A DNA stretch of 64,000 nucleotides from an uncultured Alphaproteobacteria bacterium (GTDB lineage: Bacteria; Pseudomonadota; Alphaproteobacteria; CAAHEQ01; UBA3637): positions 2,884 to 66,883 of the forward strand of contig CALARE010000005.1 of assembly GCA_937888725.1 (NCBI GenBank), in the 5' to 3' direction. Positions 22,262 to 53,781 of this stretch are shown in pieces. Both the position numbers and the translations under genes were made by a program. The number at the start of each line of letters is the position of its first letter. Positions within the stretch are counted from its first letter, which is position 1. A model generated the notes under the pieces. The model was not told the origin of the DNA, did no database searches, and saw only the letters and a list, made by a program, of their open reading frames with translations.

Positions 22262-22270
22262 AATCGCCTC

Positions 22271-22312
22271 CATTTTAGATTTTGTAGAAAAGTTGTCATT
22301 TTCTAAAATGAT
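22271..22312. repeat. Degenerate partial repeat copy 2, immediately upstream of the ATPase RBS
   Basis: CATTTTAGATTTTGTAGAAAAGTTGTCATTTTCTAAAATGA. Keeps the ATTTTAGA/TCTAAAAT inverted arms. Confidence 0.75.
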
Positions 22313-25040: not shown

Positions 25041-26540
25041 ATGAATAGTGATTTTAAGGATAATCAAGAGGATTTAAAAGAAGAAAAGACCGTTCTTTCT
25101 TCTCCTGAATATTTAGACCCTTTTTATAAGTCTTCTGATAAAAAGAAGAAAAAAAAGAAAAAGCCCTTTCCAACAGACCCAGATGATCCTGAAACGGATG
25201 ATTTTGATGAAGAAGATGACGACGATGATGATACGGAAACATCTAGTACATCAGATGATGGGGAAGATGAAAATGAATTAAAACAAGAAGAAAAGAAACA
25301 AGAAACAACATTTAAAGACCCTTTTTTAATTGCAAAACAAATGCAAAATGGGCCTTTAAAACAGCAACCTAATAATCCAGAAAAACGCCAAAGAAGTCCG
25401 CTTCAAAAGTTTTTTGATGTACTTCTTTATGGTGTTGAAGGGGCTAAACTTAGAAATGGTGATTTGCAAGTTAAAAATTCAATGTTTGATGAATTGTTAT
25501 TAGGTCTTGGCTTTAAGGCATATCTAAAAGATGTTCTTTTAAATAATCAATTGATTAAGCATTTGAAACAAAAGGCAAATAATCAAGATAATCCCTCATT
25601 TATTAAGCGAATTTTTAAGAATTTAAAGAAAAAAATATTTAAAGATTCAGAATTAAAATCTACGTTATCCCAAGTGAAAAAAAAGCTTGAAACAGCTGAG
25701 AAAAAAACAACACTTATTTCAACTATTCAAGAAAAAAGTGATATTTCAATGCAACAGGTTAAAAAAGAAGATGTTTTACAACGTTTAAAAACACCACAAC
25801 GTCCCGCACCTGTTGGGAAAAAAGCCCCTGAGAAAGATAAGGTTGTATTAACAAAAGAAGAAGCAAAAAAAATTTTGTTGGCTGTTGAGGAAGAAGAAAA
25901 ACGCTTAAAAGATCAAGAACGTCGTTTGGTCATTAATCAAGAAAAAGAAAACACGGCACTTCAATTAAAATTACAAGAAAATATTAAGGAACAAAGGCAA
26001 ATCAAAGCTCGTACAGCACACGAAGCAACTGTGTCAGCACAAAAAGATGTAGCAATGGCCGAGCGTGCTCAAATGATGGCAAACAAAGATATAGCTCAAG
26101 CACAAAAAGCTGCTCTTTTATCAATGCAAAGAGATGTGGCAACTAATCAAGCTGAAAAAGATTATGCGATGCAAGCTCAAATGCAAAAAAATCAAGTGCA
26201 AGAAAAAGAGATGAAAATAGACACAGAACAACTTGGTCAAGCAATGGCTCAAATTGCATCTGTGGCCCTAGGTTCTAAGATGGGAAAGCCAAATCCACCC
26301 AAGTTGCCACAAGCACTGGATGCTTTGTTGTCACAGGGGAATGTGCAATCCAAAGAAGCTTCTGACAAACAGACGGTTGCTGAAACGGTCCGTTTGGATG
26401 AAAAGGGACGCACGGAACCTGTGCCTTCTCAACAAAATGAGGTGCATCAAAGTGCGTTGGCTAAGGCTGCTCAGACATATAATGATAAATCTGATATGCA
26501 ATCTATGCAAAATCAAAATAACAAACAAGATGGCAAATAA
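25041..26540 (+). CDS. Hypothetical low-complexity protein with an acidic/poly-Lys N-terminus and a Q/A/M-rich coiled-coil C-terminus
   Basis: DKKKKKKKKPFPTDPDDPETDDFDEEDDDDDD. Later repeats of the type KDVAMAERAQMMANKDIAQAQKAALLSMQRDVATNQAEKDYAMQAQMQ. No signal peptide or enzymatic motif seen. Confidence 0.5.
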   Translation: MNSDFKDNQEDLKEEKTVLSSPEYLDPFYKSSDKKKKKKKKPFPTDPDDPETDDFDEEDDDDDDTETSSTSDDGEDENELKQEEKKQETTFKDPFLIAKQMQNGPLKQQPNNPEKRQRSPLQKFFDVLLYGVEGAKLRNGDLQVKNSMFDELLLGLGFKAYLKDVLLNNQLIKHLKQKANNQDNPSFIKRIFKNLKKKIFKDSELKSTLSQVKKKLETAEKKTTLISTIQEKSDISMQQVKKEDVLQRLKTPQRPAPVGKKAPEKDKVVLTKEEAKKILLAVEEEEKRLKDQERRLVINQEKENTALQLKLQENIKEQRQIKARTAHEATVSAQKDVAMAERAQMMANKDIAQAQKAALLSMQRDVATNQAEKDYAMQAQMQKNQVQEKEMKIDTEQLGQAMAQIASVALGSKMGKPNPPKLPQALDALLSQGNVQSKEASDKQTVAETVRLDEKGRTEPVPSQQNEVHQSALAKAAQTYNDKSDMQSMQNQNNKQDGK

Positions 26541-39322: not shown

Positions 39323-40414
39323 ATGGAACAAAAAATAAATCAAATGCGTGAAGAAATAATAAGTGCGATTCAAAGTGCTGATACATTGATTGTGCTTGAT
39401 GAAATACGAGTTAAAACATTGGGTAAAAGTGGTTCAATTACAGCTCAGATGAAAGAACTGGGTGCTTTGCCTGTTGAAGAAAGAAAAACGGCAGGTCAGT
39501 TGCTTAATGTTTTTAAAACAGAAATTGCTGGGGCAATTGAGGTTAAAAAAGCTGAATTGGAAGAAAAAGAACTTAATGAACGTTTAAAATCTGAAATGGT
39601 TGATGTGACACTTCCTGTCAGACCTCAGGTAAATATGGGCCGTATTCACCCTGTTTCTCAAGTGATGGAAGAAATGCTTTCCATTTTTGCACAAATGGGG
39701 TTTGATTTGGCCGAAGGACCAGATATTGAAGATGACTTCCATAATTTTGAAGCTTTGAATATTCCGCCATCACACCCTGCTCGTCAAATGCAAGCAACTT
39801 TCTTTATGGAAAATACGGTTGATAAAGTTTTAAGAACACAAACATCAGGGGTTCAAATCCGTACAATGGAAAATAAAAAGCCTCCTATCAAAATTGTGGC
39901 TCCTGGGCGGACATATCGTAGGGATTATGATATGACTCATACGCCAATGTTCCATCAAATTGAAGGGCTTGTGATTGATACAGAAACAAACCTTGCACAT
40001 CTTAAAACCACATTGGTTGAGTTTATGAAACTCTTTTTTGAAACAGATGATGTCGCACTTCGTTTTAGACCTTCATATTTCCCATTCACAGAGCCATCGT
40101 ATGAGGCTGATGTTGGTTGTTCACGTGAAAATGGTGAATTTAAAATTAAATCAGGTGCTGGTTGGTGTGAGTTACTTGGTTGCGGTATGGTGCATCCAAA
40201 TGTGCTTAAAAATTGTGGGCTAGATCCTGATGTTTATCAAGGTTTTGCCTTTGGGTGCGGGATTGATAGATTTGCAATGTTAAAGTACGGAATTCCCGAT
40301 TTAAGAAGTTTCTTTGATGCTGATATGAGATGGATTAAGCATTATGGTTTCTTACCACTTGATATGCCAACAAATACAAGTGGTTTAAGTTTGAATGGAG
40401 GATTAAAACGATGA
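39323..40414 (+). CDS. pheS: Phenylalanine--tRNA ligase alpha subunit
   Basis: HPVSQV, class II synthetase motifs (FRPSYFPFTEPS, GFAFGCGIDRFAML). Confidence 0.95.
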   Translation: MEQKINQMREEIISAIQSADTLIVLDEIRVKTLGKSGSITAQMKELGALPVEERKTAGQLLNVFKTEIAGAIEVKKAELEEKELNERLKSEMVDVTLPVRPQVNMGRIHPVSQVMEEMLSIFAQMGFDLAEGPDIEDDFHNFEALNIPPSHPARQMQATFFMENTVDKVLRTQTSGVQIRTMENKKPPIKIVAPGRTYRRDYDMTHTPMFHQIEGLVIDTETNLAHLKTTLVEFMKLFFETDDVALRFRPSYFPFTEPSYEADVGCSRENGEFKIKSGAGWCELLGCGMVHPNVLKNCGLDPDVYQGFAFGCGIDRFAMLKYGIPDLRSFFDADMRWIKHYGFLPLDMPTNTSGLSLNGGLKR

Positions 40415-42771
40415 AAGTTTCATTAACAGCATTAAAAAGATATTTTGATACAACAGCATCTGTGCAAGAAATTTCTGATAAGTTGACATCTATTGGTTTA
40501 GAGGTTGAAGAAGTTGTGGATAAGGGTGCTGATTTAGAAGGGTTTATTATTGGTGAAATTAAAGCAGTTGAAAATCACCCCAATGCGGATAAACTCCATA
40601 TTTTACGTGTTTCAACTGGGGATGAAATGATCCAAGTCGTATGTGGCGCACCCAATGTTTATGAAGGGATGAAATCCATTTTGGCTCGACCTGGGGTCAT
40701 GATTCCATCTTATGGCGAACGTTTGGAAAAAGGCGTTATCCGTGGTGTTGAAAGTATGGGTATGATGTGTTCTGAAAAAGAACTTAATCTTGGGACAGAT
40801 CATTCTGGAATCATTGATTTGAAAACAGATTTGCCAGCTGGGACACCAGCAAGTGAGGTTTTCCCATCCGATGTTATTTTTGATGTGAATGTAACACCAA
40901 ATCGAGGCGATTGCTTTGGCGTGAAAGGAATTGCAAGAGATTTAAATGCAACAGGAATTGGTACGCTGATTGAACAAAATGTTGAGCCTGTTAAAGGAAG
41001 TTTCAAATCTCCAATTCAAATTCATATGCAAGATGAAAATTGCCCAGAGTTTGTTGGCCGTTATATTCGCAATGTTAAAAATGGTCAAAGCCCAAAATGG
41101 ATGCAAGATTTCTTAATTTCAATGGGTTTAAGACCAATTTCAGCTTTGGTTGACATCACAAATTATATGAATATTGCAGAATGTAGACCGCTTCATGTTT
41201 TTGACGCTGATAAATTGACGGGTGATATTTATGTCCGCTCAGCTAAAGAAGGTGAAAAACTTAAGGCCCTAGATGAAAAAGAATATACACTGCAAGACGG
41301 AATGACGGTTATCGCTGATGCTCAAAAGGCACAAAGTATTGCAGGTATTATGGGTGGAGAGGAAACGGGATGTACTGAAAATACAGTCAATGTCTTTTTA
41401 GAAGCAGCCTATTTTAACCCTATTTCAATTGCGTCAACAGGGCGTATTTTAAATGCTGAATCTGATTCAAGAACACGTTTTGAGCGGGGGATTGATCCTC
41501 TTTCTCAAATTGAGGCAAATGAAAAAGCAACGAGACTTATTTTAGATATTTGTGGTGGTGAAGCATCTGAGATTATTATAGCAGGAAACGGTGTGACGAA
41601 CAAAAATATCATCGATTTCGATTTTAATGAAGTAAAACGTTTATGTGGTTTTGATGTTTCAAGAGAAAAATCAGTTGAAATATTAGAAAAACTTGGTTTT
41701 AAAGTTGATGGTAATCGAATTGAAGTTCCTTCATGGCGGTCAAATGATGTTAAATTAAAAGCTGATATTGTGGAAGAAATTGTCCGCATTTATGGGCTTG
41801 ATGAATTACCTAATTCACCATTAAGACCAACCAATTTAACAACAAGTATTTTGTTGCCACATCAAAAGCGTGAGGTTGCTATTCGAAGATCACTTGCTAA
41901 CCGTGGGTTAAATCAAGCAATTACATGGTCCTTTATGGATTCGAAATTAGCCAAACATTTTGATTCAAAAGGGATTAAAATTGCGAATCCAATCGCATCA
42001 GATTTAGATGAAATGCGTCCATCATTGATACCTAATTTGCTCTCTGCGGTTAAACGTAATCAAGATAGAGGGATAAAGGATGTTCAATTATTCGAAGTTG
42101 GACCAGAGTTTTATTCGACTGTACCAAATGAACAACGCATGGTTGCGGCAGGTGTGCGGGCTGGTAATTTTTATCCACGTCATTTCTTGGCCGAACAAAG
42201 GGGTGTTGATGTTTTTGATGCGAAAGCTGATGCATTGGATGCACTTGCTTCAATTGATGCACCACAAAATTTACAAATTGCAAGGAAAGCCCCTTCTTGG
42301 TATCATCCAGGGCGTTCTGGGTCAGTTGTACTTGGTAAAAATGTGATTGCTCATTTTGGTGAAATTCATCCAGCAATATTAAAAGTATTTGATATTAAAA
42401 CGCCTGTATCAGCATTTGAGGTTTATATGGATAATGTGCCACAACCTCGTCAAAAAACAAAAGCTCAAAAACTGTTAAAAATGTCTAATTTAATGCCATT
42501 AACACGTGATTTTGCTTTTGTGGCAGATAAGGGGGTTGAGGCATCTAAAATTATGTCTGTTATTGCTAATGTGGATAAAGAAAAAATTACGAATGTGGCG
42601 ATTTTTGATATTTATGAAGGGGATAAGCTCCCGCAAGATAAGAAATCGCTTGCCATTCAGGTAACAATTTCTCCAATGGATAAAACAATGACAGATAAAG
42701 AAATTGAAATTTTAAGTGTTCAAATTATTAATGCTGTTCAAAAAGCAACAGGAGCAGAACTAAGAGCTTAA
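40411..42771 (+). CDS. pheT: Phenylalanine--tRNA ligase beta subunit
   Basis: 786 aa. tRNA-binding domain with HPNADKL. B3/4, B5 and C-terminal FDX-ACB-like regions. ATGA overlap with pheS. Confidence 0.95.
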   Translation: MKVSLTALKRYFDTTASVQEISDKLTSIGLEVEEVVDKGADLEGFIIGEIKAVENHPNADKLHILRVSTGDEMIQVVCGAPNVYEGMKSILARPGVMIPSYGERLEKGVIRGVESMGMMCSEKELNLGTDHSGIIDLKTDLPAGTPASEVFPSDVIFDVNVTPNRGDCFGVKGIARDLNATGIGTLIEQNVEPVKGSFKSPIQIHMQDENCPEFVGRYIRNVKNGQSPKWMQDFLISMGLRPISALVDITNYMNIAECRPLHVFDADKLTGDIYVRSAKEGEKLKALDEKEYTLQDGMTVIADAQKAQSIAGIMGGEETGCTENTVNVFLEAAYFNPISIASTGRILNAESDSRTRFERGIDPLSQIEANEKATRLILDICGGEASEIIIAGNGVTNKNIIDFDFNEVKRLCGFDVSREKSVEILEKLGFKVDGNRIEVPSWRSNDVKLKADIVEEIVRIYGLDELPNSPLRPTNLTTSILLPHQKREVAIRRSLANRGLNQAITWSFMDSKLAKHFDSKGIKIANPIASDLDEMRPSLIPNLLSAVKRNQDRGIKDVQLFEVGPEFYSTVPNEQRMVAAGVRAGNFYPRHFLAEQRGVDVFDAKADALDALASIDAPQNLQIARKAPSWYHPGRSGSVVLGKNVIAHFGEIHPAILKVFDIKTPVSAFEVYMDNVPQPRQKTKAQKLLKMSNLMPLTRDFAFVADKGVEASKIMSVIANVDKEKITNVAIFDIYEGDKLPQDKKSLAIQVTISPMDKTMTDKEIEILSVQIINAVQKATGAELRA

Positions 42772-42957: not shown

Positions 42958-43341
42958 ATGAAAAAATTAGTTTATACATCCCTTTTTGCAATGAGTGTTG
43001 CTTTTTCAGGTATTGCGATGGCAGGCTTTCACGCTGATACACCAACGCCAGCTGTAAAAGGTGGTTTTAAAGGTCCAACTACAGGAATAACAACAGTTGC
43101 TGAAGCTTTGAAAGCAAAGGATGATTCGCTTGTTGTTTTAACAGGGAAAATTGAAAAAGAAACAGGTAAAGAAAAATATCTTTTTCGTGATTCAACAGGA
43201 GCAATAATAGTTGAAATTGATAATGATGATTGGCATGGTCAAGACGTAACACCAAATGATACGGTAGTTATCCATGGTGAAGTTGATAAGGAAATTTTGC
43301 ATGCTCCTGAAATTGATGTAGATAAGATTATCAAACAATAA
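42958..43341 (+). CDS. YgiW/YdeI-family periplasmic OB-fold (BOF) stress protein
   Basis: Signal peptide, then GGFKGPTTGITTVAEALKAKDDSLVVLTGKIEKETGKEKYLFRDSTGAIIVEIDNDDW, a close match to the YgiW pattern. Confidence 0.8.
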   Translation: MKKLVYTSLFAMSVAFSGIAMAGFHADTPTPAVKGGFKGPTTGITTVAEALKAKDDSLVVLTGKIEKETGKEKYLFRDSTGAIIVEIDNDDWHGQDVTPNDTVVIHGEVDKEILHAPEIDVDKIIKQ

Positions 43342-43481
43342 TAATTAAAAAACATTAAAACGAACTGTTCTTAAAAAATTGGACAGAACGAAAAGCCTCT
43401 TGAAGATTGAAGTAGCAATATTCGAGAGGCTTTTATATAATAAAAAAAGAAATACCAGTTTAATTTGAAACAGTTTTTAGC

Positions 43482-43510
43482 TTGACAAAAAATGTTTTTT
43501 GTTGTAATAT
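43482..43510 (+). promoter_or_regulatory. Near-consensus sigma-70 promoter of the orphan operon
   Basis: TTGACA (43482-43487), a 17-nt spacer, then TAATAT (43505-43510). A GGGAG RBS precedes the ATG at 43542. Confidence 0.5.
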
Positions 43511-43541
43511 CTAAAAATATAGACAAATATCGGGAGTGTGA

Positions 43542-44348
43542 ATGAATAACGAAGATAACATCGAAAAATTTATAAATTATATTAAATATATACAAAGAAA
43601 TTTTTGTTCTGAATCTATTTCAAAAAAGTTTTTGGATTCTCCATTTTCTAAAAAGTTGAAAGAATATTCTGTGAAAGATAAAGAAAGATGTTGCATAAAA
43701 TTTGTTGAATATTTATTTCTTTTTATTCGGCGTGAATGTCCGAGTTATTATAAGCACTTGCGGATAAATAGTTTCTATCTTGATGAAAAAAAAATAAAAA
43801 ATATGTTGTTGTTGCTGAAAAAACATATTGGAGATAAATCCGAAACATTTACTGAGGCTGTTGACCTTTTCAATGGGTATATATCTTCTGATAATATAAT
43901 TTCAAAAAAAGCGATTTTAGATTGTGTTCGATCCTTTTACCCAAAGGATAAAAAACCTTCTAGATGTGCTGATTTTATTGTGTTAAATGAAATGAATAAG
44001 CGGATGAATTATATATTGACTTCTAGCGAGTTAAAAGATGTGTTGTATACTTTAAATTCTGAGTGCTTTTTTTCTGAACAAGATCTCTTATGTGATAAAA
44101 GCTCTTGTTCATATAATATACCAAATGAAAAATATTCTTTTTTAATAGTAAAAAATGGAATTTTTAATTTTTTGTATAAAAGGAAAAAACAGACTGATAC
44201 TAAAATGGGCGTATGTTCTTTTTCGGATAAAACATTTGCTTCTTTTTATGCAGAGCTTAAGAAAAATCATATTGAACTAAGTGGTGAACAATCAGATACA
44301 CCATTTTTAAAGGTGCATTTATCCAGTATAAAAGATAATCAAAGATAA
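43542..44348 (+). CDS. Hypothetical protein (orphan island gene A)
   Basis: 268 aa, rich in Cys, Lys and Asn. I recognise no motif. Confidence 0.5.
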   Translation: MNNEDNIEKFINYIKYIQRNFCSESISKKFLDSPFSKKLKEYSVKDKERCCIKFVEYLFLFIRRECPSYYKHLRINSFYLDEKKIKNMLLLLKKHIGDKSETFTEAVDLFNGYISSDNIISKKAILDCVRSFYPKDKKPSRCADFIVLNEMNKRMNYILTSSELKDVLYTLNSECFFSEQDLLCDKSSCSYNIPNEKYSFLIVKNGIFNFLYKRKKQTDTKMGVCSFSDKTFASFYAELKKNHIELSGEQSDTPFLKVHLSSIKDNQR

Positions 44349-44355
44349 ATTTTTT

Positions 44356-45762
44356 ATGGATTTTCTAATGGATAAAAAAAAGAACAAAACTTTAAAATCA
44401 ATCGAAACAATTAATCAACAGCCTATTTTCTTTTTAGTATCCAAGGGTGATCTTGAGATTGTTAATGACTGTATTGTGACTGCGGGCTCCAGTTTGAGTG
44501 AGCGGATTGATGATATTTTAAAAATCAGAAAATTAGTGCTTGGTAATGATGGTAAAGAATATGTTTTTTTAGATTCTTCAGGAAACTCAATTTCTCCTTT
44601 GAATCCACATATGAAAACATCAATTGTACTTTGCCCAGATGGACAGCGTATTGGAACTGCAAAACGGGTTGTTTTTCGTGTGGATACACAAAGCGATCCA
44701 CATGCTAGTTTTATTGCTTTTCTTGAGTCTTTTGAACAGCATTTAGGGAGTATGGCGTATAAAAGTGCTTATGGTGATCAAAAACCAGTTGAATGGCGTA
44801 ATTTGTTAGAAAAAGAATATATTGCTATTCAATTAGAAGGGGATTTTATTCCATTAAAGGAAAGACAAAAAATAAAAGATGACACGCCTGAAGGTGTTTT
44901 TTTTACTTTGCAGAGTGAGTACAATTCTTGTGATAATGCCACCATTGTTGAAACAAAAATTTCGGTAGCTGAAAATTTTGCAAATTTAACACAGTTAAAT
45001 GAAGAAATTTTTGATGAAATTATTGGGATTGCTAACTTCGAAGAATTGGATAGATATTTTGAAAAATTTTCTTCTTTCACATATGAAAATAAATGCACAT
45101 TTTATGAGTGGATTGATGAGTGGGTTGATAAAAATGCGGAAATTCCTATTTTGGATAAGGTTGTTTATCTTTGTTGGCGTGGATTTAATGCAGATGCAGA
45201 TATTAAAACAAAAAAAAATCAGTTAAACAGGTATCATTTTTTAAATAAGGAATCTCTGCAACAAGAGTTGAGAACTTTGCGAAGTGAACAGATTTCAAAA
45301 AATAAAATATATACGTTATTTAATGCTCTTTTGACTGTTGTTAACTCAGTCCAAGAAAAAGATACTTGTGATGAAGATGAAAAAAATGCAAATCAGTTTT
45401 ATGCTATTCTTGAGGTGAAAGATTCTTATGCTAAAAATACGCTATTATCAGAAGATGCAAATAAAAAATTAACAAAACAATTGCTTCATTTTTTATTAAA
45501 AAACGGATTTGTTGTGCGTTCTCAGGGAGATATAGTACGAAGCCTTTGTGTTGTTGCTTGTCTTGCAAGTGATGCGAATACAGAAAATGTCAGTAAATGT
45601 TATCAAAATATTGCATCTGAAGTTCAAAAAACTTATCCTAGTTCTGACGAGTTGCAAAGAATTGTGGTGAGAAATTCAAATACAGAAATAGGTGTGGTGA
45701 GAAAGTTAGATGTAGAAATAGGTTCACTTTTGAAACAGTTTTTACAAAAATTTAGATCATAA
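44356..45762 (+). CDS. Hypothetical protein (orphan island gene B)
   Basis: 468 aa, starting 7 bp after gene A. No P-loop, nuclease or HTH motif recognised. Confidence 0.5.
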   Translation: MDFLMDKKKNKTLKSIETINQQPIFFLVSKGDLEIVNDCIVTAGSSLSERIDDILKIRKLVLGNDGKEYVFLDSSGNSISPLNPHMKTSIVLCPDGQRIGTAKRVVFRVDTQSDPHASFIAFLESFEQHLGSMAYKSAYGDQKPVEWRNLLEKEYIAIQLEGDFIPLKERQKIKDDTPEGVFFTLQSEYNSCDNATIVETKISVAENFANLTQLNEEIFDEIIGIANFEELDRYFEKFSSFTYENKCTFYEWIDEWVDKNAEIPILDKVVYLCWRGFNADADIKTKKNQLNRYHFLNKESLQQELRTLRSEQISKNKIYTLFNALLTVVNSVQEKDTCDEDEKNANQFYAILEVKDSYAKNTLLSEDANKKLTKQLLHFLLKNGFVVRSQGDIVRSLCVVACLASDANTENVSKCYQNIASEVQKTYPSSDELQRIVVRNSNTEIGVVRKLDVEIGSLLKQFLQKFRS

Positions 45763-45855
45763 TTCAACATGCTCTTTTTTTAGGATTTTTGAAACATTTT
45801 TTCTGTTGTCAAAATCTTTAAAGAATGTTATCCTATATATAGGAGGGGATATATT

Positions 45856-46665
45856 ATGGTAAAAGTCACATTGTTGCGAGAAGAACAAATTTGGGGCCCT
45901 GACGCTTTAGATGTAATTAAAATTTATGGCACTAAGGTGGCTCAAAGTGATTTGGCAATTGTTCTTGGAGGATGGCTTGGTAGCGATGGCGTTACGATGG
46001 AAGGGGATAGATCTGGATATATGTGGACAGCCTCTGGTTTGTTGGATTTAGGTCTTGTTCGAACCATTACGCATGCAGGTGATAAATGCTATTATTATCC
46101 AAATCGTAGACGTGATGGTGTGCGTCCTGTGTTGTTAAAAGATGAAACCGCTAAAATTACACCTGATTCAATTAGGGAAATGGTATTGACGGATGGTCAA
46201 ATTGTGAAATTAGCGATGTATGGGGAATATCCACAAAAATCTGTTAAAATAAAGTTAAGCGAATTATTAGAAAAAATGTATCATAATAAAGAATTGAAAA
46301 AGACAAAACGTTATTTTACATTTGATACGGCGGGTTTGACTGATTATGAAACAGGGTTGAAGCCAAAGCAATATTTTGTTTATATTCACGATGGTAAGAG
46401 CTATGTTCGATTGGAGGGACGCCCAGCTGATAGCGATTCAATTTTATCGAATGGAAAAGATGTGCAAATTGGTGAACCGTATTGGATTGAAGTGTTGCCA
46501 ATTAAATGGCTTGTAGATGAAAAAACGGGGATTTGGATTTCTAAAAAAGCACTGGTAAGTGGGATTCGTTTTGGTGCAGATGATACTTATAATGGTAAAT
46601 TTGAAGAAACGGATATGCACCATTATTTAAATACATATTTTGCCAACGAGATGTTGAATAAATAG
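45856..46665 (+). CDS. Hypothetical protein, DUF6273-like (orphan island gene C)
   Basis: GYMWTAS ... DGVRPVLL and PIKWLVDEKTGIWISKKAL ... HHYLNTYFANE resemble, from memory, the WWLRS / GVRPAL / IeWrVL / LRkWLN motifs of DUF6273 proteins, but in a different order. AGGAGGGG RBS. Confidence 0.5.
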   Translation: MVKVTLLREEQIWGPDALDVIKIYGTKVAQSDLAIVLGGWLGSDGVTMEGDRSGYMWTASGLLDLGLVRTITHAGDKCYYYPNRRRDGVRPVLLKDETAKITPDSIREMVLTDGQIVKLAMYGEYPQKSVKIKLSELLEKMYHNKELKKTKRYFTFDTAGLTDYETGLKPKQYFVYIHDGKSYVRLEGRPADSDSILSNGKDVQIGEPYWIEVLPIKWLVDEKTGIWISKKALVSGIRFGADDTYNGKFEETDMHHYLNTYFANEMLNK

Positions 46666-46743
46666 AATATATGAAATACAGCTCTCATGGTAAGGAAAGC
46701 GTATATCAAAAATGATTTTCTTTAATATTAGGACTTGAATTTT

Positions 46744-46760
46744 ATACCATATGATGGTAT
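46744..46760. promoter_or_regulatory. Perfect 17-bp palindrome upstream of the lipoprotein gene
   Basis: ATACCAT-ATG-ATGGTAT. A TATAAT hexamer lies at 46775-46780. Confidence 0.3.
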
Positions 46761-46823
46761 GAAAAATAATAACATATAATACGCATAATATTTTGTGTTA
46801 GAGGTGAGGGAGTCATTTTTGTA

Positions 46824-47297
46824 ATGAAGAAAATTTTAACCTTGTTTTTGATTGTTTTTATGGCGGGATGCAGTACGCTGACTCAAGAAGAAAAAAATGC
46901 TATCGATGATTTAAGACGTATTCGTATTACGGTTAAACGTCCTGTGTCAAAGTGGAAAGCTCCTGTGGATACGAAAAAAGCAACTATTCTTAGTATATTG
47001 CCAGGTGGCGGAAATTTTTATCTAGCAAGCACTGGTGCTGCAGGTAAAGAGCAATATCTTTATGGTGCACTTAATTTGATAACATGGCCTTTTTCGCTTT
47101 CTTGGGCAATACCGACTGTATATCATGAAGCAGACAATATTAACAAAAAAGATTTAATATATTATTATACTTATAATCCAGAGGGTGTAAATTTATTGCA
47201 TTATAACGGATATCATCTAACACCAGAAGGGTATTTGCAAAGACTTTATCGTCGGGTTTATCAATATACAGATGCTACTCCTTGGGGTTATTATTAA
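46824..47297 (+). CDS. Lipoprotein, hypothetical
   Basis: Lipobox FMAGC|S. Internal hydrophobic PGGGNFY ... WPFSLSW segment. Confidence 0.55.
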   Translation: MKKILTLFLIVFMAGCSTLTQEEKNAIDDLRRIRITVKRPVSKWKAPVDTKKATILSILPGGGNFYLASTGAAGKEQYLYGALNLITWPFSLSWAIPTVYHEADNINKKDLIYYYTYNPEGVNLLHYNGYHLTPEGYLQRLYRRVYQYTDATPWGYY

Positions 47298-47373
47298 TAA
47301 ATTCAAAGTGATTATTTTAAGTTAAAAGTTATTTATGTGAAATAAATTATCCCAAAGATATCTTTTAATGCTA

Positions 47374-47408
47374 TAAAAAAAACAGGCGAGAATACCGCCT
47401 GTTTTTTA
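47374..47408. terminator. Bidirectional terminator
   Basis: AACAGGCG-agaatac-CGCCTGTT flanked by A8 and T6, between convergent genes. Confidence 0.65.
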
Positions 47409-47418
47409 TATTTTATTT

Positions 47419-48783
47419 TTAAATAAAATATTCTTTTAATATTTGGGGCAATTCATCTAATGAAACACGTTTCTGTTCCATTGTATCTCTATCACGAATG
47501 GTAACAGTTGTTGGTTGTTGTTCAATACTTTCAAAGTCAACCGTAATACAAAATGGTGTACCAATTTCATCATGACGACGATATGCTTTACCAATGTTCC
47601 CTGAGTCTTCAAGCATCACACGGCCAATACCTGTTTTTAAGAGTTGATTCTTAATGTTGCGAGCCATTTCCATAATTTGAGGGTTGTTACGTTTAAGGGG
47701 AATAACAGCCGCTTTAACTGGAGCAAGATGTTTTTTCAGTTTTAAAACAGTTCTCACTTCACCATTTGGTAATGTTTCTTCTGTATATGCTTCAGTTAAA
47801 ACCGCAAGAACGCCACGTTCGACTCCTGCTGATGGTTCGATAACAAAAGGAACATACCACTTTTTTGACTCATCATCAAAAAGGGCAAGTTTTGTAGCAC
47901 TTTCTTTGTTTTCATGTGGTGTTGATGTGAGATTTAACTCTGATTGATAACGTGTGTGGTTGCCAAGATCATAATCCGTTCTATCAGCAATTCCTTCTAG
48001 TTCTTCCAATCCATGTGGAAATTCATATTCTAAATCATATGTTGCTTTTGAATAATGAGCAAGTTCTTCTTTTTCAATGGTGTGGACTTTTAGTTTGTCT
48101 TTATTAAGACCTTGATCTAGCCACCAATTGATGCGATTATCCTTCCAAGTTTCAAGCCATTCTTCATCAGTCCCTGGTTTAACAAAATATTCAAGCTCCA
48201 TCTGTTCAAACTCACGCACACGGAAAATAAAGTTACGAGGCGTGATTTCATTGCGGAAAGATTTCCCAATTTGTGCAATACCAAAGGGGGCTTTGCGTGA
48301 AGTAGAATCAACGACATTTTTAAATTGAGTAAAAATTGCTTGAGCTGTTTCTGGGCGAAGATAGGCATAATTTTCACTATTTTCAACAGGGCCAACTGTT
48401 GTTTTAAACATTAGATTAAACATCCGTGGTTCAGTTAATTCTGTGCTACCACAATTTGGACATTTTCCATCTTTGATGTGATCAGCTCTAAAGCGATTTT
48501 TACATTTTTTACAATCTGTCAATGGATCGGTAAAAGTTGCTTCATGCCCGCTGTAATGTAAAACTTTTTGATGTGTTAAAATAGAGGCATCTAAACCCTC
48601 AACATCGTCACGTTCATAAATCATAGAACGCCACCATGCTGCTTTCAAGTTGTTTTTAAGTTCAACACCTAAGGGGCCAAAGTCATAAACACCTTGCAAA
48701 CCGCCATAAATATCAGCGTTTTGAAAGATAAATCCACGTCTTTTACAAAGTGAAACCAATTGATCCATAGATGTTGCTGGCAT
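47419..48783 (-). CDS. glyQS: Glycine--tRNA ligase, homodimeric (alpha2, GlyQS) type
   Basis: 454 aa. N-terminus [37 protein letters not shown]. Class II motifs [25 protein letters not shown] and PSAGVERG. Confidence 0.93.
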
Positions 48784-48938: not shown

Positions 48939-49286
48939 TTATTTTGCAGCTGGTTTTTGTTGTGGTTTTTTTCTTTTATCAACTAAATGATAAATGCCAG
49001 TTTTTGGGTTTTTCTTATATACTTCAATATCCCATTTATCCCAAACAATTTCAAATGAATCAGCTGTAATGTTTTGTAAGTTACCAGCATCGCTTGATAA
49101 TTTGCGTTGAGCACGACCCTGTCCTAAATTAACAATTGTGCCAGACCAAGCTGGATGTTGAACTTGAACTTGACTTGGTAAAGTGTATTTCACTTCATTT
49201 GATGTGGTTTGTTCTCCGCCTGTATAATAAACAACCCCGACAGCCAATGCACCTAAAACGACTAAAAACGGTATAATTTTTTTCAT
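48939..49286 (-). CDS. Hypothetical N-terminally anchored or secreted protein
   Basis: MKKIIPFLVVLGALAVGVVYY followed by a soluble domain with a Lys/Pro-rich tail. Confidence 0.5.
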   Translation of the reverse strand: MKKIIPFLVVLGALAVGVVYYTGGEQTTSNEVKYTLPSQVQVQHPAWSGTIVNLGQGRAQRKLSSDAGNLQNITADSFEIVWDKWDIEVYKKNPKTGIYHLVDKRKKPQQKPAAK

Positions 49287-49383
49287 ATTTTTCTCCTTTA
49301 AAACAATCCAATCCTACCTAAATCTACTCTTAGCAAAAAAATAATTAAAATACAACAAAAAAAATACATGAAAACAAAAAAAA

Positions 49384-49794
49384 TTAAAAGGATAGAGGGA
49401 TAATTGTTTGAATAAGACCGCAGTCAAATTTTTCAAATAATGAAGATTTGTTTTCTATTTGTTGGTTTGTTTGATTTTTATTGAATTTTTTGGATAAAGA
49501 ATCTGGTTTTCTGACAAATGTGCCACAGTGTGATATTGAGAAAAATGATTTTTTTTCTGGTATGTTGGTTGTTGCGTCTTCCAAAAAGATTTTTTTTACC
49601 TTTTGTGAGTTTGATTTCTGAAACGGTAGCGAAAAATCAAAATGCGTTGTTTGCGTTTTAAAAGGAATATACTGTACTAAAAACAGATGTGTGAAAAGAT
49701 TGTCTTTGCTGTTTTTGTAACTATTAAACAAGTAAAATAGTGAAATAAAAGCCAAGGATATGATAAAAAGCAATATAAAGTGTTTCTTTTTCAT
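49384..49794 (-). CDS. Hypothetical N-terminally anchored protein
   Basis: MKKKHFILLFIISLAFISLFYLF anchor. No motif recognised. Confidence 0.45.
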   Translation of the reverse strand: MKKKHFILLFIISLAFISLFYLFNSYKNSKDNLFTHLFLVQYIPFKTQTTHFDFSLPFQKSNSQKVKKIFLEDATTNIPEKKSFFSISHCGTFVRKPDSLSKKFNKNQTNQQIENKSSLFEKFDCGLIQTIIPLSF

Positions 49795-49830
49795 ATGATG
49801 ACTATAGCGGTTTTTATAAATATTGTAAAT

Positions 49831-49859
49831 AAAAAAAGCACACAGGATGTGTGCTTTTT
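49831..49859 (-). terminator. Rho-independent terminator closing the paralog array
   Basis: GCACACA-gga-TGTGTGC flanked by A and T runs, immediately downstream of the ORF at 49898..50374. Confidence 0.6.
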
Positions 49860-49897
49860 GTCATATCTAAAGTTCAATATATGATAAATGCTACAGA

Positions 49898-50374
49898 TTA
49901 TGCCCTTGTAAGAATTTTTTCTTCCTTTTTTGAGGTTGAGGCAACATTTTGAGAGTGGCTTGAAATTCTGCGTGGTTGTCTAATCTCTTTTTCATAAACA
50001 GCAAAAACATTAGAACCTTTTTCATTTTTAAAATAATCAATAAACATTTTGGGTTGTTCAATACTTTCCGAAGATATTTTTCCTGGGTTTGTTGTGGCAA
50101 CGCCAATATCTCTATAATGTGAAAACATTTTAGAAAAATGTTTTTGAGTGTCTTTTGGCATACAAACATGGCTATCATATTCCCCCCATGACCAATCAAT
50201 CATACTCGTAGCCCATTTAGTGCACTCTTTTAATGCCTTGTTCGTTGGCGATTCGTTTTTTTCTTCTTCAGATAAGCTATCTAAATAACAGCCAACAGTG
50301 TTTAATTTTTTTATAATTTCATTTAATTCTAGATTTTCTTGTTTTCTTGACGAAAATATATTAAAAATACTCAT
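49898..50374 (-). CDS. Paralog-array protein P1 (hypothetical)
   Basis: Starts MSIFNIFS; its first 23 nt are identical to those of P2. Shared motifs HFSKMFSHY and PKMFIDYFKNEKGSNVF. Confidence 0.6.
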   Translation of the reverse strand: MSIFNIFSSRKQENLELNEIIKKLNTVGCYLDSLSEEEKNESPTNKALKECTKWATSMIDWSWGEYDSHVCMPKDTQKHFSKMFSHYRDIGVATTNPGKISSESIEQPKMFIDYFKNEKGSNVFAVYEKEIRQPRRISSHSQNVASTSKKEEKILTRA

Positions 50375-50473
50375 GTTAAAACTCCTTTACACAATATAAC
50401 ATTGTTCGTGTTATAATTTATAAAGATATTTTTGTTAATACTTTTTTTGTTTTTATTATTTTTGTTGTGTTAT

Positions 50474-50926
50474 TTATTCATTTGAATGATAGTTTTTATT
50501 TTTTATTATGGATTTTATAACCCAATTTCCTCTCTCGTCAGTAGAAATTCTAAATGGTTTTTCCCAGTTTGCAATAAGTTCAGCACCTTCTTCTTTTGTA
50601 AAAAAATCAATGAACAGTTGAGGGTGGCGAACGGTTGCGGCTGAGAAACTTTGAGGATAAGAAATCGCATCCATAATAGCATCATAATGCTCAGACATGG
50701 TTTTAAAATGATCTTCTACACTTTTTGTCGGGTAGCGAAAAAAATTATAGTGGCTTTTTAGAATTGTGCGTTTGTGGTTTATCAATTCCTTACATTCATC
50801 TATAGATATTCTCATTAGGGAATGAGGGTCATTTGATACGGATCTTCCTATTTTATCTAATTTATCAACAATAATTTCTAATTCCTTTTTTTCTTTGTTT
50901 TTTGAAAATATATTAAAAATACTCAT
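50474..50926 (-). CDS. Paralog-array protein P2 (hypothetical)
   Basis: MSIFNIFS..., HFKTMSEHY, PQLFIDFFTKEEGAELI. AAGGAG RBS. Confidence 0.6.
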   Translation of the reverse strand: MSIFNIFSKNKEKKELEIIVDKLDKIGRSVSNDPHSLMRISIDECKELINHKRTILKSHYNFFRYPTKSVEDHFKTMSEHYDAIMDAISYPQSFSAATVRHPQLFIDFFTKEEGAELIANWEKPFRISTDERGNWVIKSIIKNKNYHSNE

Positions 50927-50936
50927 GGTGTTCTCC

Positions 50937-51485
50937 TTATAATATTCTTTGATTATTTTTTCCTTGAAGTTGCTTGATATTTCTTTTTGCTAAAACAACA
51001 GTTTTTATTCCTACTCCAAGTATAACTCCAGCAACAACAGCAGAAAAAGTTAACAATTTTTTTGTGGTTGAGCTTATCCCTTTTTGAGGGGTATTTGGCT
51101 CGATAAGATGATGAATGTGTACCTTTTCTTGATTCCAAGCTTTAAGAATAGATGAGCCGTTTCCCCTTGTAAAATAATTGATAAACCGTTTGCGTTCAGT
51201 TGAATTTAAATTGTAACTATTTAACTTACCACTTAATGAAAGTTTTATTATATCCCAAAACTTTAATATTTCAACCTGCGAATTATTGATAGAAAGCGTA
51301 TAATTTTGATCTTTTTCTAATGTTGTAATGGCGTTATCAGCTTGTTTTTTGCAATAGTCAATGTATTTTGATGTATTAAAAAGCTGTTTATTTGATTTAG
51401 ATAAATTTTCAAGCTCTGAAACGATTGTTTCTAACTCCATATTGATATCTCGAGCTTTTTCAATGTTTGATGTAAATAATGCCAT
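50937..51485 (-). CDS. Paralog-array protein P3 with a C-terminal TM helix (hypothetical)
   Basis: RKRFINYFTRGNGSSIL motif, plus the C-terminal hydrophobic segment LLTFSAVVAGVILGVGIKTVVLA. Confidence 0.6.
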   Translation of the reverse strand: MALFTSNIEKARDINMELETIVSELENLSKSNKQLFNTSKYIDYCKKQADNAITTLEKDQNYTLSINNSQVEILKFWDIIKLSLSGKLNSYNLNSTERKRFINYFTRGNGSSILKAWNQEKVHIHHLIEPNTPQKGISSTTKKLLTFSAVVAGVILGVGIKTVVLAKRNIKQLQGKNNQRIL

Positions 51486-51552
51486 TTATTTATCCTTTCT
51501 TATTATTTTTTTGGCAGTTATGTTTTTGACGAAATAATAAAACAAAAACGAC

Positions 51553-51969
51553 CTATTTTGTGTTTAAAAATTTTTGTTGAATCAAATGCGGTAAGACAGT
51601 CTGAAAATTTCTCTTTTCTACTTCTTTATAATAATGTTCACCTAAAAAGTGATACAAAATAGCATGTTGCTGTTTTTTTGTCAAAATTCCCTCATGCATG
51701 TGACGTATCACTTTTTGTGGAAAATTATACGAATCATAAATAGCCTTCCACTTTAAATATGTTGTTTGCATATCAGAGTTGTTTGAAACACTTGGATTCG
51801 CATATTGTTCATAAAAACGCAGTTGGTCAAAGACTTTCTCTCTATTTTTTGAAATACTTTTCGCAATTTGTGCATTTTGCTGATTTGGCGAATCTTCTGA
51901 TGTTGTTTTTATAAGGCGTTCCAGCGTAACTAAAATTAGCTGAATAAGTTCTTTTTTTTCTTTTGACAT
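51553..51969 (-). CDS. Paralog-array protein P4 (hypothetical)
   Basis: KWKAIYDSYNFP (compare P5 KIRAIYDSYNDP) and QQHAILYHFLGEH. Confidence 0.6.
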   Translation of the reverse strand: MSKEKKELIQLILVTLERLIKTTSEDSPNQQNAQIAKSISKNREKVFDQLRFYEQYANPSVSNNSDMQTTYLKWKAIYDSYNFPQKVIRHMHEGILTKKQQHAILYHFLGEHYYKEVEKRNFQTVLPHLIQQKFLNTK

Positions 51970-51979
51970 AATCGCACTC

Positions 51980-52126
51980 TTAGTTGTTAGCTTTTAATAA
52001 GTTCTGCGTAATAGCTTTTACTTCAATGGGACTAAGTGCTGGTTTCCCATTGAGAAAAATCTTGTAATGTGGCATCAATACGGGATAATAATTTGATAAG
52101 TTGTTTTTTTTATATTTAGCAAGCAT
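51980..52126 (-). CDS. Possible 48-aa sORF inside the array; not in the ORF track
   Basis: My translation is MLAKYKKNNLSNYYPVLMPHYKIFLNGKPALSPIEVKAITQNLLKANN. AAGGAAA RBS. Located 10 bp upstream of P4 and 19 bp downstream of P5. Confidence 0.3.
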   Translation of the reverse strand: MLAKYKKNNLSNYYPVLMPHYKIFLNGKPALSPIEVKAITQNLLKANN

Positions 52127-52145
52127 GTTATTTCCTTTTGTTGGG

Positions 52146-52658
52146 TTATTTAATTCGTTCTTTAAAAGCTTTAAAAAAAACTTTTTGTAGATTTAACGGT
52201 AATCTTTGAACCCCTTTTTGGATTTCGTGCGGCGTTAAGATGCAAGAAAGAGCAATCCATTTGTTTAAATTATCAGATTTATCCTGTGGAATGAGAGATT
52301 GAAGTTCTTCTTTTGTAAATAATTCCTTTCCCTCTCCTTTGGTAAAATGCTGAATAATAGCTCGCTTTTGTTCAGCACCATAACTGTTTAAATTTTTAAG
52401 GGTATTGATTGGGTCATTATATGAATCATAAATGGCTCGAATTTTTGCAACTTCACCTCTTTTTTTTGTGCAAATTCTAGGATTAAAAGCGTTTAATGAG
52501 TCAGCTTTTATGTGGTAATTATTCAAGTGTTGTAGATAATACTCTGCAGCACTTGTTTTTGCAAGGGCGGTGTTGCCGTTTTCATAAAACAAAATATCAT
52601 TCTTGATGTTTGAAAGAAGGAAAAGTATCTTTTCGATTATGCTTATATTTTTTGTCAT
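52146..52658 (-). CDS. Paralog-array protein P5 (hypothetical)
   Basis: KIRAIYDSYNDP and QKRAIIQHFTKGEGKELF. Confidence 0.6.
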   Translation of the reverse strand: MTKNISIIEKILFLLSNIKNDILFYENGNTALAKTSAAEYYLQHLNNYHIKADSLNAFNPRICTKKRGEVAKIRAIYDSYNDPINTLKNLNSYGAEQKRAIIQHFTKGEGKELFTKEELQSLIPQDKSDNLNKWIALSCILTPHEIQKGVQRLPLNLQKVFFKAFKERIK

Positions 52659-52669
52659 TAGAATTCAAC

Positions 52670-53143
52670 TTAACAATTTGAAAGAGCTTGTCTTTTTTGT
52701 TCATATAAAAATTTTTTTTCATAGGGTTTTCCAATAATCGAATGAGGGAACCCTTTTCTTTGCGTTTTAAGTGCTTGTTCGAAGCTTAATTGGCAAATAA
52801 ATTGACGACAAATTGGCGTTAGTGTATCGATAATGTCTTGTCTTTCCTCAGAGGTTAAATTTACTAATGTTGATACAAGATAAGATGGACAATGATAGAT
52901 TTTGGTGATGTTTTTCCATTTATTTAGTTGTCTAGCAAGTTCAGGTGTTTCACCTTCATTGACACGAATAGAAAGTTCTGTCATTCGCCAATTGTGAAAA
53001 GCTGTTTGTTGAAAATCAATAATAGGCAGATCTCTTTGAACACTTTTTTTTGATTTTGATAAGTATTTATGTGCTTGGTCAATTGTTTTTACAATACATT
53101 TGATTTTTGAAATTTCAATTTCATCTTGACTTTTTGTACCCAT
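52670..53143 (-). CDS. Paralog-array protein P6 (hypothetical, most divergent)
   Basis: KWKNITKIYHCP and TSEERQDIIDTL align with the P4/P5 motifs. Confidence 0.55.
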   Translation of the reverse strand: MGTKSQDEIEISKIKCIVKTIDQAHKYLSKSKKSVQRDLPIIDFQQTAFHNWRMTELSIRVNEGETPELARQLNKWKNITKIYHCPSYLVSTLVNLTSEERQDIIDTLTPICRQFICQLSFEQALKTQRKGFPHSIIGKPYEKKFLYEQKRQALSNC

Positions 53144-53233
53144 CTTTTACCCTTTCTGTAGCAAAAAAACACTTTTATTTTAGCATGAATGGAGTTATTT
53201 GTCAAATGTTTTATTTAAAATGATTATTTTGCT

Positions 53234-53276
53234 AAAAAATAACCACCCTTAAATTTTTATGGGTGGTTATTTATCT
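53234..53276 (-). terminator. Terminator after hsp20
   Basis: ATAACCACCC-(12 nt)-GGGTGGTTAT flanked by A and T runs. Confidence 0.6.
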
Positions 53277-53301
53277 TATTTTTTATAGATTTTATATGCT
53301 A

Positions 53302-53781
53302 TTATTTTTCTTTAATTTTGATTTTTTTTAGATTAGGTGTTTCTGTTTTTGTTTTGGGTATGTTAATTTTAAGCAATCCTTTGTCAAAGGAGGCAGAGAC
53401 ATTTTCATCATCAATATCTGTGGGTAGAGCAATGGTGCGATTGATGAAACCGTAAGAGCGTTCTGAAAAATAGAATCCCTCATCATCTTTTTGTTCATGA
53501 GAATCTGTTTTTTCACCACTAATTGTTAAATAACCATCTTTTGAAATGTGTAAATTAATATCATCTGCACTCATGCCAGGAAGTTCAGCTGTTATTTGTA
53601 CATTTTTAGCGGTTTCAGAAATTTCAATATCTGGTTCTAAAAGATTTTCCATTTGCCCGAATTTTTCAAAAGGGGCTATATGTTTATCAAAAATGCGATT
53701 AATTTCATTTTGAATGGAATTAACTTCTTTGTGTCTCGCTTTTAGGTATTTTTTGTTATAAGGTGCTACTTTTTGTGACAT
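53302..53781 (-). CDS. Small heat-shock protein (Hsp20/alpha-crystallin family)
   Basis: Alpha-crystallin domain: DIEISETAKNVQITAELPGMSADDINLHISKDGYLTISGEK ... GFINRTIALPTDIDDENVSASFDKGLLKINIPK. Start at MSQKV (53781) with an AAGGAG RBS. Confidence 0.85.
   Translation of the reverse strand: MSQKVAPYNKKYLKARHKEVNSIQNEINRIFDKHIAPFEKFGQMENLLEPDIEISETAKNVQITAELPGMSADDINLHISKDGYLTISGEKTDSHEQKDDEGFYFSERSYGFINRTIALPTDIDDENVSASFDKGLLKINIPKTKTETPNLKKIKIKEK

Follow-up and report, generated by a model that had tools for sequence, protein, structure and literature searches.

Taxonomically restricted orphan genes that are lost during reductive genome evolution form a general evolutionary pattern and not a functional family. 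Most defense systems spread by transfer, and the components of type II toxin-antitoxin (TA) systems are two small proteins of about 70 to 150 amino acids, a toxin fold and a DNA-binding antitoxin. The domain DUF6273 (PF19789) occurs in Firmicutes surface proteins. It has also been described as a C-type-lectin-like domain in the target proteins of phage diversity-generating retroelements (DGRs) and in a gut immunoglobulin A protease (PMC10743442, PMC12402451). We compared with these systems three adjacent genes, designated A, B, and C, in a 64,000-nucleotide stretch of DNA from an uncultured Alphaproteobacteria bacterium (contig CALARE010000005.1, positions 2,884 to 66,883, forward strand), referred to here as the window. 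The original prediction for this DNA had described A, B, and C as one strongly promoted island between housekeeping genes, consistent with horizontal acquisition.

The A-B pair resembles the orphan-loss pattern in its clade restriction, relaxed constraint, and repeated independent loss with fragments left behind, as well as in a repeat-mediated exact deletion and a -1 frameshift in an A9 tract. It differs in that purifying selection still acts on B in the species of the window. With two-gene anti-phage or TA operons A-B shares a compact, coupled arrangement, a strong and probably regulated promoter, fast evolution, and a patchy distribution. However, A-B has no match in PADLOC, Pfam, or NCBIfam and no recognizable effector domain, and it is inherited vertically at a fixed locus. 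At 268 and 468 amino acids, A and B also far exceed the usual size of type II TA proteins. The gene upstream of the pair is a bona fide member of the BOF family of YgiW/YdeI proteins, and the pairing of BOF with C is found throughout the clade. Outside the clade, relatives of A, B, and C were not found beside ygiW or anywhere else.

We give a probability of roughly 0.6 to the following explanation as a whole. A small clade of uncultured, AT-rich Alphaproteobacteria of the ruminant gut has the gene order pheS-pheT-BOF-[A-B]-C, in which A-B is a clade-specific two-gene operon that was present in the common ancestor and is being lost repeatedly. Losses have occurred by illegitimate recombination between short direct repeats (contig L007), by an A9-to-A8 frameshift (L062), and by larger deletions that left fragments of B. 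The pair would be transcribed from a conserved sigma-70-type promoter, and an element downstream of the -10 suggests repression. A and B would be translationally coupled, and a small basic A and an acidic two-domain B probably form a soluble cytoplasmic complex whose function would be conditionally useful but not required in the present niche. The evolutionary and anatomical part of this account (A-B ancestral, native, and repeatedly lost, with C independent) is very probable. Because A and B are coupled, keep their order, and are retained or lost jointly, it is reasonably probable that they act as a pair, and any specific role for them, such as a conflict or defense-like module, is doubtful. 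The features on which the account draws are as follows, with genes A, B, and C taken from the list of open reading frames (ORFs).

40411-42771, pheT, upstream of the YgiW/BOF-family gene
42958-43341, + strand, gene for a YgiW/BOF-family periplasmic OB-fold protein, the conserved upstream anchor of the locus
43464-43479, + strand, direct repeat copy 1, TTTGAAACAGTTTTTA, 5' of the -35 of A; left breakpoint of a natural deletion
43542-44348, + strand, gene A, 268 amino acids
44356-45762, + strand, gene B, 468 amino acids, beginning 7 nt past the stop of A; an alternative start at 44368 gives 464 amino acids
45210-45218, + strand, A9 homopolymer in B, site of a -1 frameshift in L062
45729-45744, + strand, direct repeat copy 2, TTTGAAACAGTTTTTA, within the 3' end of B and encoding LKQFL; right breakpoint of the deletion
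45856-46665, + strand, gene C, 269 amino acids, beginning 93 nt past B

The ORFs and spacings predicted earlier for A, B, and C were recovered with exactly these coordinates and lengths.

Distribution and loss of the A-B pair

The commonest order in relatives was pheS-pheT-BOF-C, with a gap of 99 to 124 bp between BOF and C (L001 to L004, L011 to L018, L021, and L022). The window arrangement with A-B recurred in contigs L005, L006, and L062 of the same species, and two further lineages held A-B at the same site between BOF and C. The pair encodes proteins of 229 and 526 amino acids in L008/L024 and of 216 and 516 amino acids in L025/L026. Overall, the diverged copies were 26 to 34% (A) and 35 to 38% (B) identical to the window proteins. 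B was 36% identical to the L008 protein (E = 2e-86), and A was 26% identical to its counterpart in L008 (E = 1e-14) and 29 to 31% identical to that in L025. A and B were intact together or lost together, the order was A then B in all three lineages, and at least six lineages were without any trace of the pair. The suspicion that the segment is an indel was therefore borne out, as it varies between strains and between species. On gene order, the expected co-location holds for A and B in three lineages, and C is present regardless of them.

Beyond these lineages, a search of 5.8 billion proteins with A and B returned only 99%-identical copies from the same species, and an exhaustive HMMER search of 1.84 billion cluster representatives with B returned B itself and one cluster, P0015, at 36% identity, both within this clade. 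A Joint Genome Institute (JGI) metagenome scan with the B profile found nothing, nor did tblastn searches against phages and plasmids for B and against phages for A and C. No paralogues of A, B, or C were found elsewhere in the window, and the three are mutually unrelated.

An exact deletion of A-B was found in L007, which belongs to the same species as the window. In this contig, the left flank and one copy of TTTGAAACAGTTTTTA were joined straight to window position 45745 onward, which amounts to an exact 2265-bp deletion between the 16-nt direct repeats. The TTTGAAACAGTTTTTA 16-mer has exactly two copies in the window. When up to 3 mismatches were allowed, it had 14 matches, against 8.7 expected, and is thus not a motif repeated elsewhere in the window; its interpretation as a widespread regulatory element, or one resembling repetitive extragenic palindromes, was rejected. 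L007 still holds the final 10 codons of B, LKQFLQKFRS, plus the stop, and its empty allele is therefore a deletion scar and not an unoccupied target site. The C proteins of L006, which has A-B, and of L007 are identical. Leucines 458 and 459 of B (L458, L459), just before the repeat-encoded stretch, are invariant across the B lineages, indicating that the right-hand repeat is conserved native B sequence. It is the exact match of the junction to the repeats, and not the repeat itself, that is evidence for deletion. A transposon-type target-site duplication was considered as a source of the 16-nt repeats and rejected, as the right copy is part of the native coding sequence of B, no transposase is present, and orthologues occupy the same site.

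Pseudogene fragments of B were found in enlarged BOF-C gaps of other species. L020 carries a fragment of 89 codons with an in-frame stop that is 53% identical to the B of L008 (E = 3e-25), L057 carries 107 3' codons with three stops (E = 2e-25), and L019 and L056 carry a weaker fragment (E = 4e-7). In L022, a sister of L008 that lacks A-B, the terminator hairpin after BOF is the one found after B in L008. Within the species of the window, the A9 tract of the window and of L006 is A8 in L062 (L062:5735-5870), which splits B into products of 285 and 161 amino acids (P0021 and P0023). This allele may reflect decay, slipped-strand on/off switching, or an assembly error and was seen in one contig only.

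Neighbor-joining trees on BOF plus C, or on C alone, placed intact A-B in three well-separated lineages, each with close relatives lacking the pair. Ancestral presence therefore requires at least about 6 to 8 independent losses. If this account is correct, A-B is an orphan operon caught at several stages of loss and not a new mobile defense island. The stages seen ranged from intact copies and in-frame indels through a frameshift in a homopolymer, an exact deletion between repeats, and decayed fragments to absence of the whole pair. The phenomenon itself is ordinary, namely, orphan accessory genes in decay.

Several points weigh against the explanation. The trees rest on one or two proteins, and the B proteins of L008 and L025 are 47% identical to each other, compared with 35 to 38% to the B of the window. 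A-B may also have moved from one related lineage to another through homologous recombination in the flanking DNA. An exact repeat of at least 16 nt occurs in 4% of first-order Markov simulations of the region and is thus only marginally unusual, and the frameshift allele and the deletion allele each rest on one assembled contig. The domain description of B comes from secondary-structure prediction and from residues conserved among three lineages.

Promoter, products, and selection of A-B

The elements upstream of A and C that bear on expression are as follows.

43482-43487 (TTGACA) and 43505-43510 (TAATAT), + strand, A-B promoter with a 17-nt spacer, read directly from the sequence
43513-43528, + strand, 16-nt element AAAAATAT[A/T]GACAAAT between the -10 and the ribosome-binding site (RBS), conserved in all three A-B lineages by alignment
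43532-43536, RBS of A, GGGAG, 5 nt ahead of the ATG
45788-45803, + strand, third, imperfect copy of the 16-nt repeat, just ahead of the C promoter
45806-45811 (TTGTCA) and 45829-45834 (TATCCT, TG-extended), + strand, C promoter with a 17-nt spacer

The near-consensus promoter and the GGGAG RBS are present as they had been described. A consensus scan of a 4.8-kb region gave 26 promoter-like sites, against 25.8 expected, and the consensus match at the A-B promoter is by itself not above chance. The promoter has been kept in three diverged lineages, with the -35 TTGACAAAAA and the -10 shared with L008 and L026, and the A proteins across the lineages that share it are only 26 to 34% identical. Because of this conservation, the A-B promoter is probably genuine. 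In relatives its -10 is TG-extended. The position and conservation of the 16-nt element AAAAATAT[A/T]GACAAAT suggest an operator-like element, with a putative role in regulation. In L008 and L026, a second TTGACA lies inside the block corresponding to 43513-43528.

The junction of A and B is a 7-nt gap in the window, a 25-nt gap in L008, and a 17-nt overlap in L025, and no clear RBS for B was seen. A and B lie on one strand, very close together or overlapping, keep their order, and are present or absent together; they thus have the characteristics of an operon and are predicted to be cotranscribed.

A is basic (pI 9.0) and B is acidic (pI 5.3), and neither a transmembrane segment nor a signal peptide was predicted in A, B, or C. 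The claim that A and B belong to no known family or defense system was confirmed with PADLOC, Pfam, NCBIfam, and PHROGs, none of which gave a credible match. The three proteins and their diverged orthologues yielded only noise in the family scans (Gemin6_C, Cas11a, DUF3800, and PRK09945, with E values of 0.004 to 0.08). Among the 5027 models of PADLOC-DB v2, the best match of A was Cas11a (E = 0.012, 14 bits), which is noise, and there was none for B, for C, or for the L008 and L025 orthologues. Sequence and profile searches of the PDB with A and B found nothing significant. Family and transmembrane scans detected no nuclease, NTPase, TIR, protease, or membrane motif in A or B, and Pfam and NCBIfam detected no TA, helix-turn-helix, or ribbon-helix-helix domain.

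The conserved part of A consists of an N-terminal block, ...CS[EK]SIS.KF..SP[FY], and a central block, FYP.DK.PS...DF..L.EM.KRM; the rest, including about 90 C-terminal residues, is lineage specific. Within the species, A also varies in frame. L006 has a 6-amino-acid tandem duplication, FINYIK (L006:6991-7815), and L062 has a 7-amino-acid deletion, NEKYSFL (P0017, L062:4130-4915). The N-terminal region of B is predicted to be alpha/beta and has the invariant residues S29, D32, R50, D52, D53, R58, E68, D73, H85, C93, R104, and H129. Its long helical C-terminal region has invariant C273, C398, C402, and C415, in the pattern SLCxxAC...ENxxxCY. This cysteine cluster (C-x3-C...C) may be a metal site, a guess from the pattern. 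The AlphaFold2 (AF2) model of B, built from three sequences, had a predicted local distance difference test (pLDDT) score of 42.2, so only its secondary structure was used; the Foldseek results were meaningless (TM score of at most 0.13).

Selection was examined through the ratio of nonsynonymous (dN) to synonymous (dS) substitution. Between lineages, dN/dS was 0.45 to 0.77 for A and B, compared with 0.06 to 0.22 for C, BOF, and pheT, and the dN of A and B was 3 to 4 times that of their neighbors at similar dS. Within the species, dN/dS was 0.09 to 0.25 for B and 0.22 to 0.79 for A, with few substitutions. In three lineages, the A and B ORFs have stayed open across a divergence of about 1 synonymous substitution per site, with a dN/dS that remains below 1. 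A and B are real genes that are constrained, but weakly.

These data bear on two alternatives to the explanation given above. The first is a functional refinement with the same origin, in which A-B is a clade-native conflict module, such as a phage defense system, an abortive infection system, or an addiction-like pair. The cost of the module and an arms race would then account for its fast evolution, tight regulation, and frequent loss. The coupled two-gene operon, the dN/dS of 0.45 to 0.77, the repeated independent loss with presence/absence variation within the species, and the operator-like element after the promoter are all consistent with such a module, and the A9 tract could serve as an on/off switch. 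However, neither protein resembles any of the PADLOC models or carries a motif of the kinds searched for, the pair is confined to one small clade, and its inheritance is vertical, at a single fixed site among housekeeping genes and not in a defense island. Relaxed selection in a small, AT-rich gut genome is the simpler account and explains both the rates and the losses. A conflict module is therefore unlikely. We consider a more elaborate version quite unlikely, in which A and B are two subunits of an undescribed clade-native conflict or stress module and/or C is a cytoplasmic, permuted C-type-lectin-like core protein. In that version, B would bind metal through its Cys cluster and serve as sensor or effector, with A as a fast-evolving specificity or regulatory partner; a repressor at the element after the promoter would keep the module off, and the A9 tract and the repeat-mediated deletion would switch it or lose it.

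In the second alternative, A and B would already have lost their function in this species and would be open ORFs that are becoming pseudogenes. The losses within the species, the frameshift allele, the in-frame indels of A, the high dN/dS between lineages, and the fact that most relatives manage without the pair would all fit. Against this, the ORFs have remained open for the time stated above with dN/dS below 1, the dN/dS of B within the species is low, and the promoter, the RBS region, and specific blocks of residues are conserved. We regard this alternative as decidedly improbable.

Gene C, DUF6273, and base composition

C lies directly 3' of BOF in every relative found, apart from A-B where the pair is present, with 74 to 81% identity. 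A search of 5.8 billion proteins returned 12 homologues at 73 to 98% identity; the only one with a name came from an Alphaproteobacteria metagenome-assembled genome (MAG). All nine genome records that the C alignment later brought up were also Alphaproteobacteria MAGs, and the titles of three of the nine refer to roe deer colon, yak rectum, and sheep rectum. A JGI metagenome scan with the C profile added one locus only, L056. The dN/dS of C is 0.08 to 0.2, and the gene persists, highly conserved, in at least 10 lineages without A-B. The C promoter is conserved upstream of C with or without A-B, as judged from alignment across lineages. This distribution shows C to be a clade-restricted, strongly conserved backbone gene, separate from the variable segment. 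The proposal of a three-gene unit is contradicted by these results, as C follows BOF whether or not the pair is present and is preceded by a conserved promoter of its own. A terminator hairpin lies between B and C in L008 and L025, and there is none in the lineage of the window, so that read-through into C is possible there.

C was also said to recall DUF6273 proteins with the motifs in permuted order. The motifs YMWTAS, DGVRPVLL, PIKWLVDEKTGIWISKKAL, and HHYLNTYF are all present, and at the motif level the likeness consists of an aromatic-W-T-x-S followed about 27 residues on by GVRPV, plus YPQ, P-I-x-W, and Y-L-N-x-Y-F. Their order in C indeed differs from that in DUF6273. The DUF6273 domains of the papers cited above belong to larger proteins, namely, a secreted protease and phage receptor-binding (DGR target) proteins; in contrast, C has no signal peptide and stands alone. 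The DUF6273 model (PF19789, gathering score of 23.5 bits) had no match to C or five orthologues at an E value of 1 or below, and none to the N-terminal half of C or to two circularly permuted constructs at an E value of 10 or below. As a positive control, the same model matched a phage ORF (L036:2454-3665) at 74.5 bits (E = 1.2e-20).

We also compared profiles with hhalign. The DUF6273 exemplars were four viral-contig sequences recovered with WWLRSP DNA patterns, of which L036 was confirmed with Pfam and L044, L051, and L054 were picked by motif and not scanned with Pfam. A 13-sequence C profile in native order, or as its N- or C-terminal half, gave P values of at least 0.1 against these exemplars, both profiles being shallow. 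The permuted order was the best of the four arrangements, with a P value of 0.025 and a probability of 1.9% over 128 aligned columns, and the comparison was not significant. C had no family match in Pfam, NCBIfam, PADLOC, or PHROGs, and its profile found nothing significant in the PDB. Its AF2 model (13 sequences) had a mean pLDDT of 39.9 and was unusable, and Foldseek gave no PDB match at an E value of 0.001 or below (TM score of at most 0.13). Two C orthologues weakly matched PRK09945, an NCBIfam "hypothetical protein" (E = 0.023 and 0.083), far below its cutoff. The matches were consistent in place (residues 19 to 108 of C and 22 to 105 of P0007, at profile positions of about 291 to 378 of 418), and a transitive link from C to DUF6273 through PRK09945 failed. 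Membership of C in DUF6273 is thus not supported, natively or permuted, and a motif-level lead remains.

These results also make it very unlikely that A, B, and C form one system with C as a circularly permuted, DUF6273-like ligand-binding subunit of C-type-lectin fold. Such a system would agree with three adjacent genes on one strand, the missing B-C terminator in the window lineage, the W-T-A-S...GVRPV and YPQ...P-I-x-W...Y-L-N-x-Y-F motifs, the description of DUF6273 as C-type-lectin-like (PMC10743442), and the permuted profile being the best of four. However, C is kept in at least 10 lineages without A-B under its own promoter, a terminator hairpin separates it from B in L008 and L025, the Pfam model failed with C, its halves, and its permutations while detecting the control, the hhalign probability was 1.9%, and the structural model was unusable. 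C is therefore best treated as independent of the pair, and A-B remains, in the preferred explanation, a native operon undergoing loss.

Base composition was compared with that of 53 long ORFs of the window, which had a mean GC content of 0.336 (standard deviation [SD], 0.032) and a mean GC content at third codon positions (GC3) of 0.231 (SD, 0.034).

Gene A, GC 0.260, the lowest among the 53 ORFs; GC3 0.208
Gene B, GC 0.311; GC3 0.203
Gene C, GC 0.368; GC3 0.285, both above the window means

The low GC content of A reflects its Lys/Asn/Ile-rich protein composition. The GC3 of A and B is backbone-like, and a compositional signature of foreign origin is absent. The block had been thought to be more AT-rich than its surroundings; this is true of the GC content of A only, and C is not AT-rich.

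That A-B, or A-B and C, was acquired horizontally as an island between ygiW and glyQS carrying a novel defense or host-interaction system is highly improbable, for although A-B is missing from many relatives and one same-species strain, A has the lowest GC content in the window, the promoter is strong, evolution is fast, known domains are lacking, and a 16-nt direct repeat flanks the variable segment, C is in every relative, the empty allele holds the last 10 codons of B with the right repeat within its conserved C terminus, diverged orthologues and pseudogene fragments occupy the same site in other lineages, GC3 is native, there is no integrase or transposase ORF in 43.3 to 47.4 kb and the nearest tRNA is 23 kb away, and no homologues were found outside the clade, in phages, or in plasmids and no PADLOC match in any lineage. 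The genes are at the same position in relatives with backbone-like composition, which refutes the original prediction of horizontal acquisition completely for C and largely for A-B. A strain-level indel, low GC content, a strong promoter, and missing homologues are thus not enough, even together, to establish a horizontal island. The analysis instead flags three unclassified families in uncultured ruminant-gut Alphaproteobacteria, A and B evolving fast and C highly conserved.

Flanking genes and other features of the window

The remaining features around the locus are as follows.

43391-43434, + strand, hairpin after BOF, a probable terminator; inverted repeat with 19-nt arms, 89% complementary, and a 6-nt loop
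46824-47297, + strand, lipoprotein gene, 157 amino acids, lipobox ...FMAGC, between C and the glycyl-tRNA synthetase (GlyRS) gene; weak LPAM_1 match; lineage-specific context
47377-47407, + strand, terminator hairpin between the lipoprotein and GlyRS genes; the scan gave 12 pairs with a T-run after them
47419-48783, - strand, gene for single-chain GlyRS, convergent with the rightward unit

The BOF gene matched Pfam BOF (E = 2.6e-29) and NCBIfam stress_OB_fold (E = 5e-36) and passed the cutoffs of both families (PF04076, 101.8 bits with a cutoff of 25.8; NF033674, 123.3 bits with a cutoff of 35). The N terminus of its product is signal-peptide-like, the gene adjoins pheST in all relatives, and GC-rich hairpins equivalent to 43391-43434 also lie 3' of BOF there. 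Housekeeping flanks had been expected on both sides. YgiW was found upstream as described, but glyQS is not a direct neighbor, because the 157-amino-acid lipoprotein gene intervenes. This gene was also present in the same-species strains L005, L006, L007, and L062. Rightward transcription probably ends at the hairpin at 47377-47407. Rfam and tRNA scans found no RNA elements in the locus, and the sole tRNA in the window, at 20041, is 23 kb from the block.

The DNA just 3' of C is a rearrangement breakpoint across lineages (L001, L004, L008, L011, L013, and L025 compared with window positions 46666-48783). The neighbors after C were the lipoprotein and GlyRS genes, NUDIX, His_Phos_1 with a hexapeptide transferase, YacG/RNase G, or L36/Lnt/ATP synthase. 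Despite this breakpoint, the pheST-BOF-(A-B)-C block was unbroken in all lineages compared. Small ankyrin-repeat proteins are encoded near pheST beside lexA in relatives (L001:2623-3117, L004:2610-3104, L008:13720-14049, L011:13461-14093, and L014:287-784).

Other products of the window include FliG, SecA, a nucleoside transporter, and an autotransporter, a set that suggests a motile inhabitant of the gut rather than an obligate endosymbiont. The autotransporter (55854-60881, + strand) is a protein of 1675 amino acids that ends in an autotransporter beta-domain (E = 4e-44) and whose passenger region is unannotated. Adjoining GlyRS is a run of small ORFs (48939-53781), within which positions 49898-52658 on the - strand hold a tandem array of small orphan ORFs of 138 to 182 amino acids with no Pfam matches and a GC content of about 0.29 to 0.31. 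Five ORFs of this array are mutually paralogous (25 to 32% identity, E values of 3e-16 to 9e-4), and L011 has a similar run of small unannotated ORFs beside GlyRS. The tRNA-Leu gene (anticodon GAG, 20041-20125) lies about 0.9 kb from an AAA_14/DUF4143 ATPase gene (21008-22273) in a low-GC stretch (0.29). The segment with the strongest AT skew (+0.245) holds a 499-amino-acid ORF (25041-26540, + strand) whose product is 20% Lys plus Asn and has no Pfam match at an E value of 1e-5 or below.

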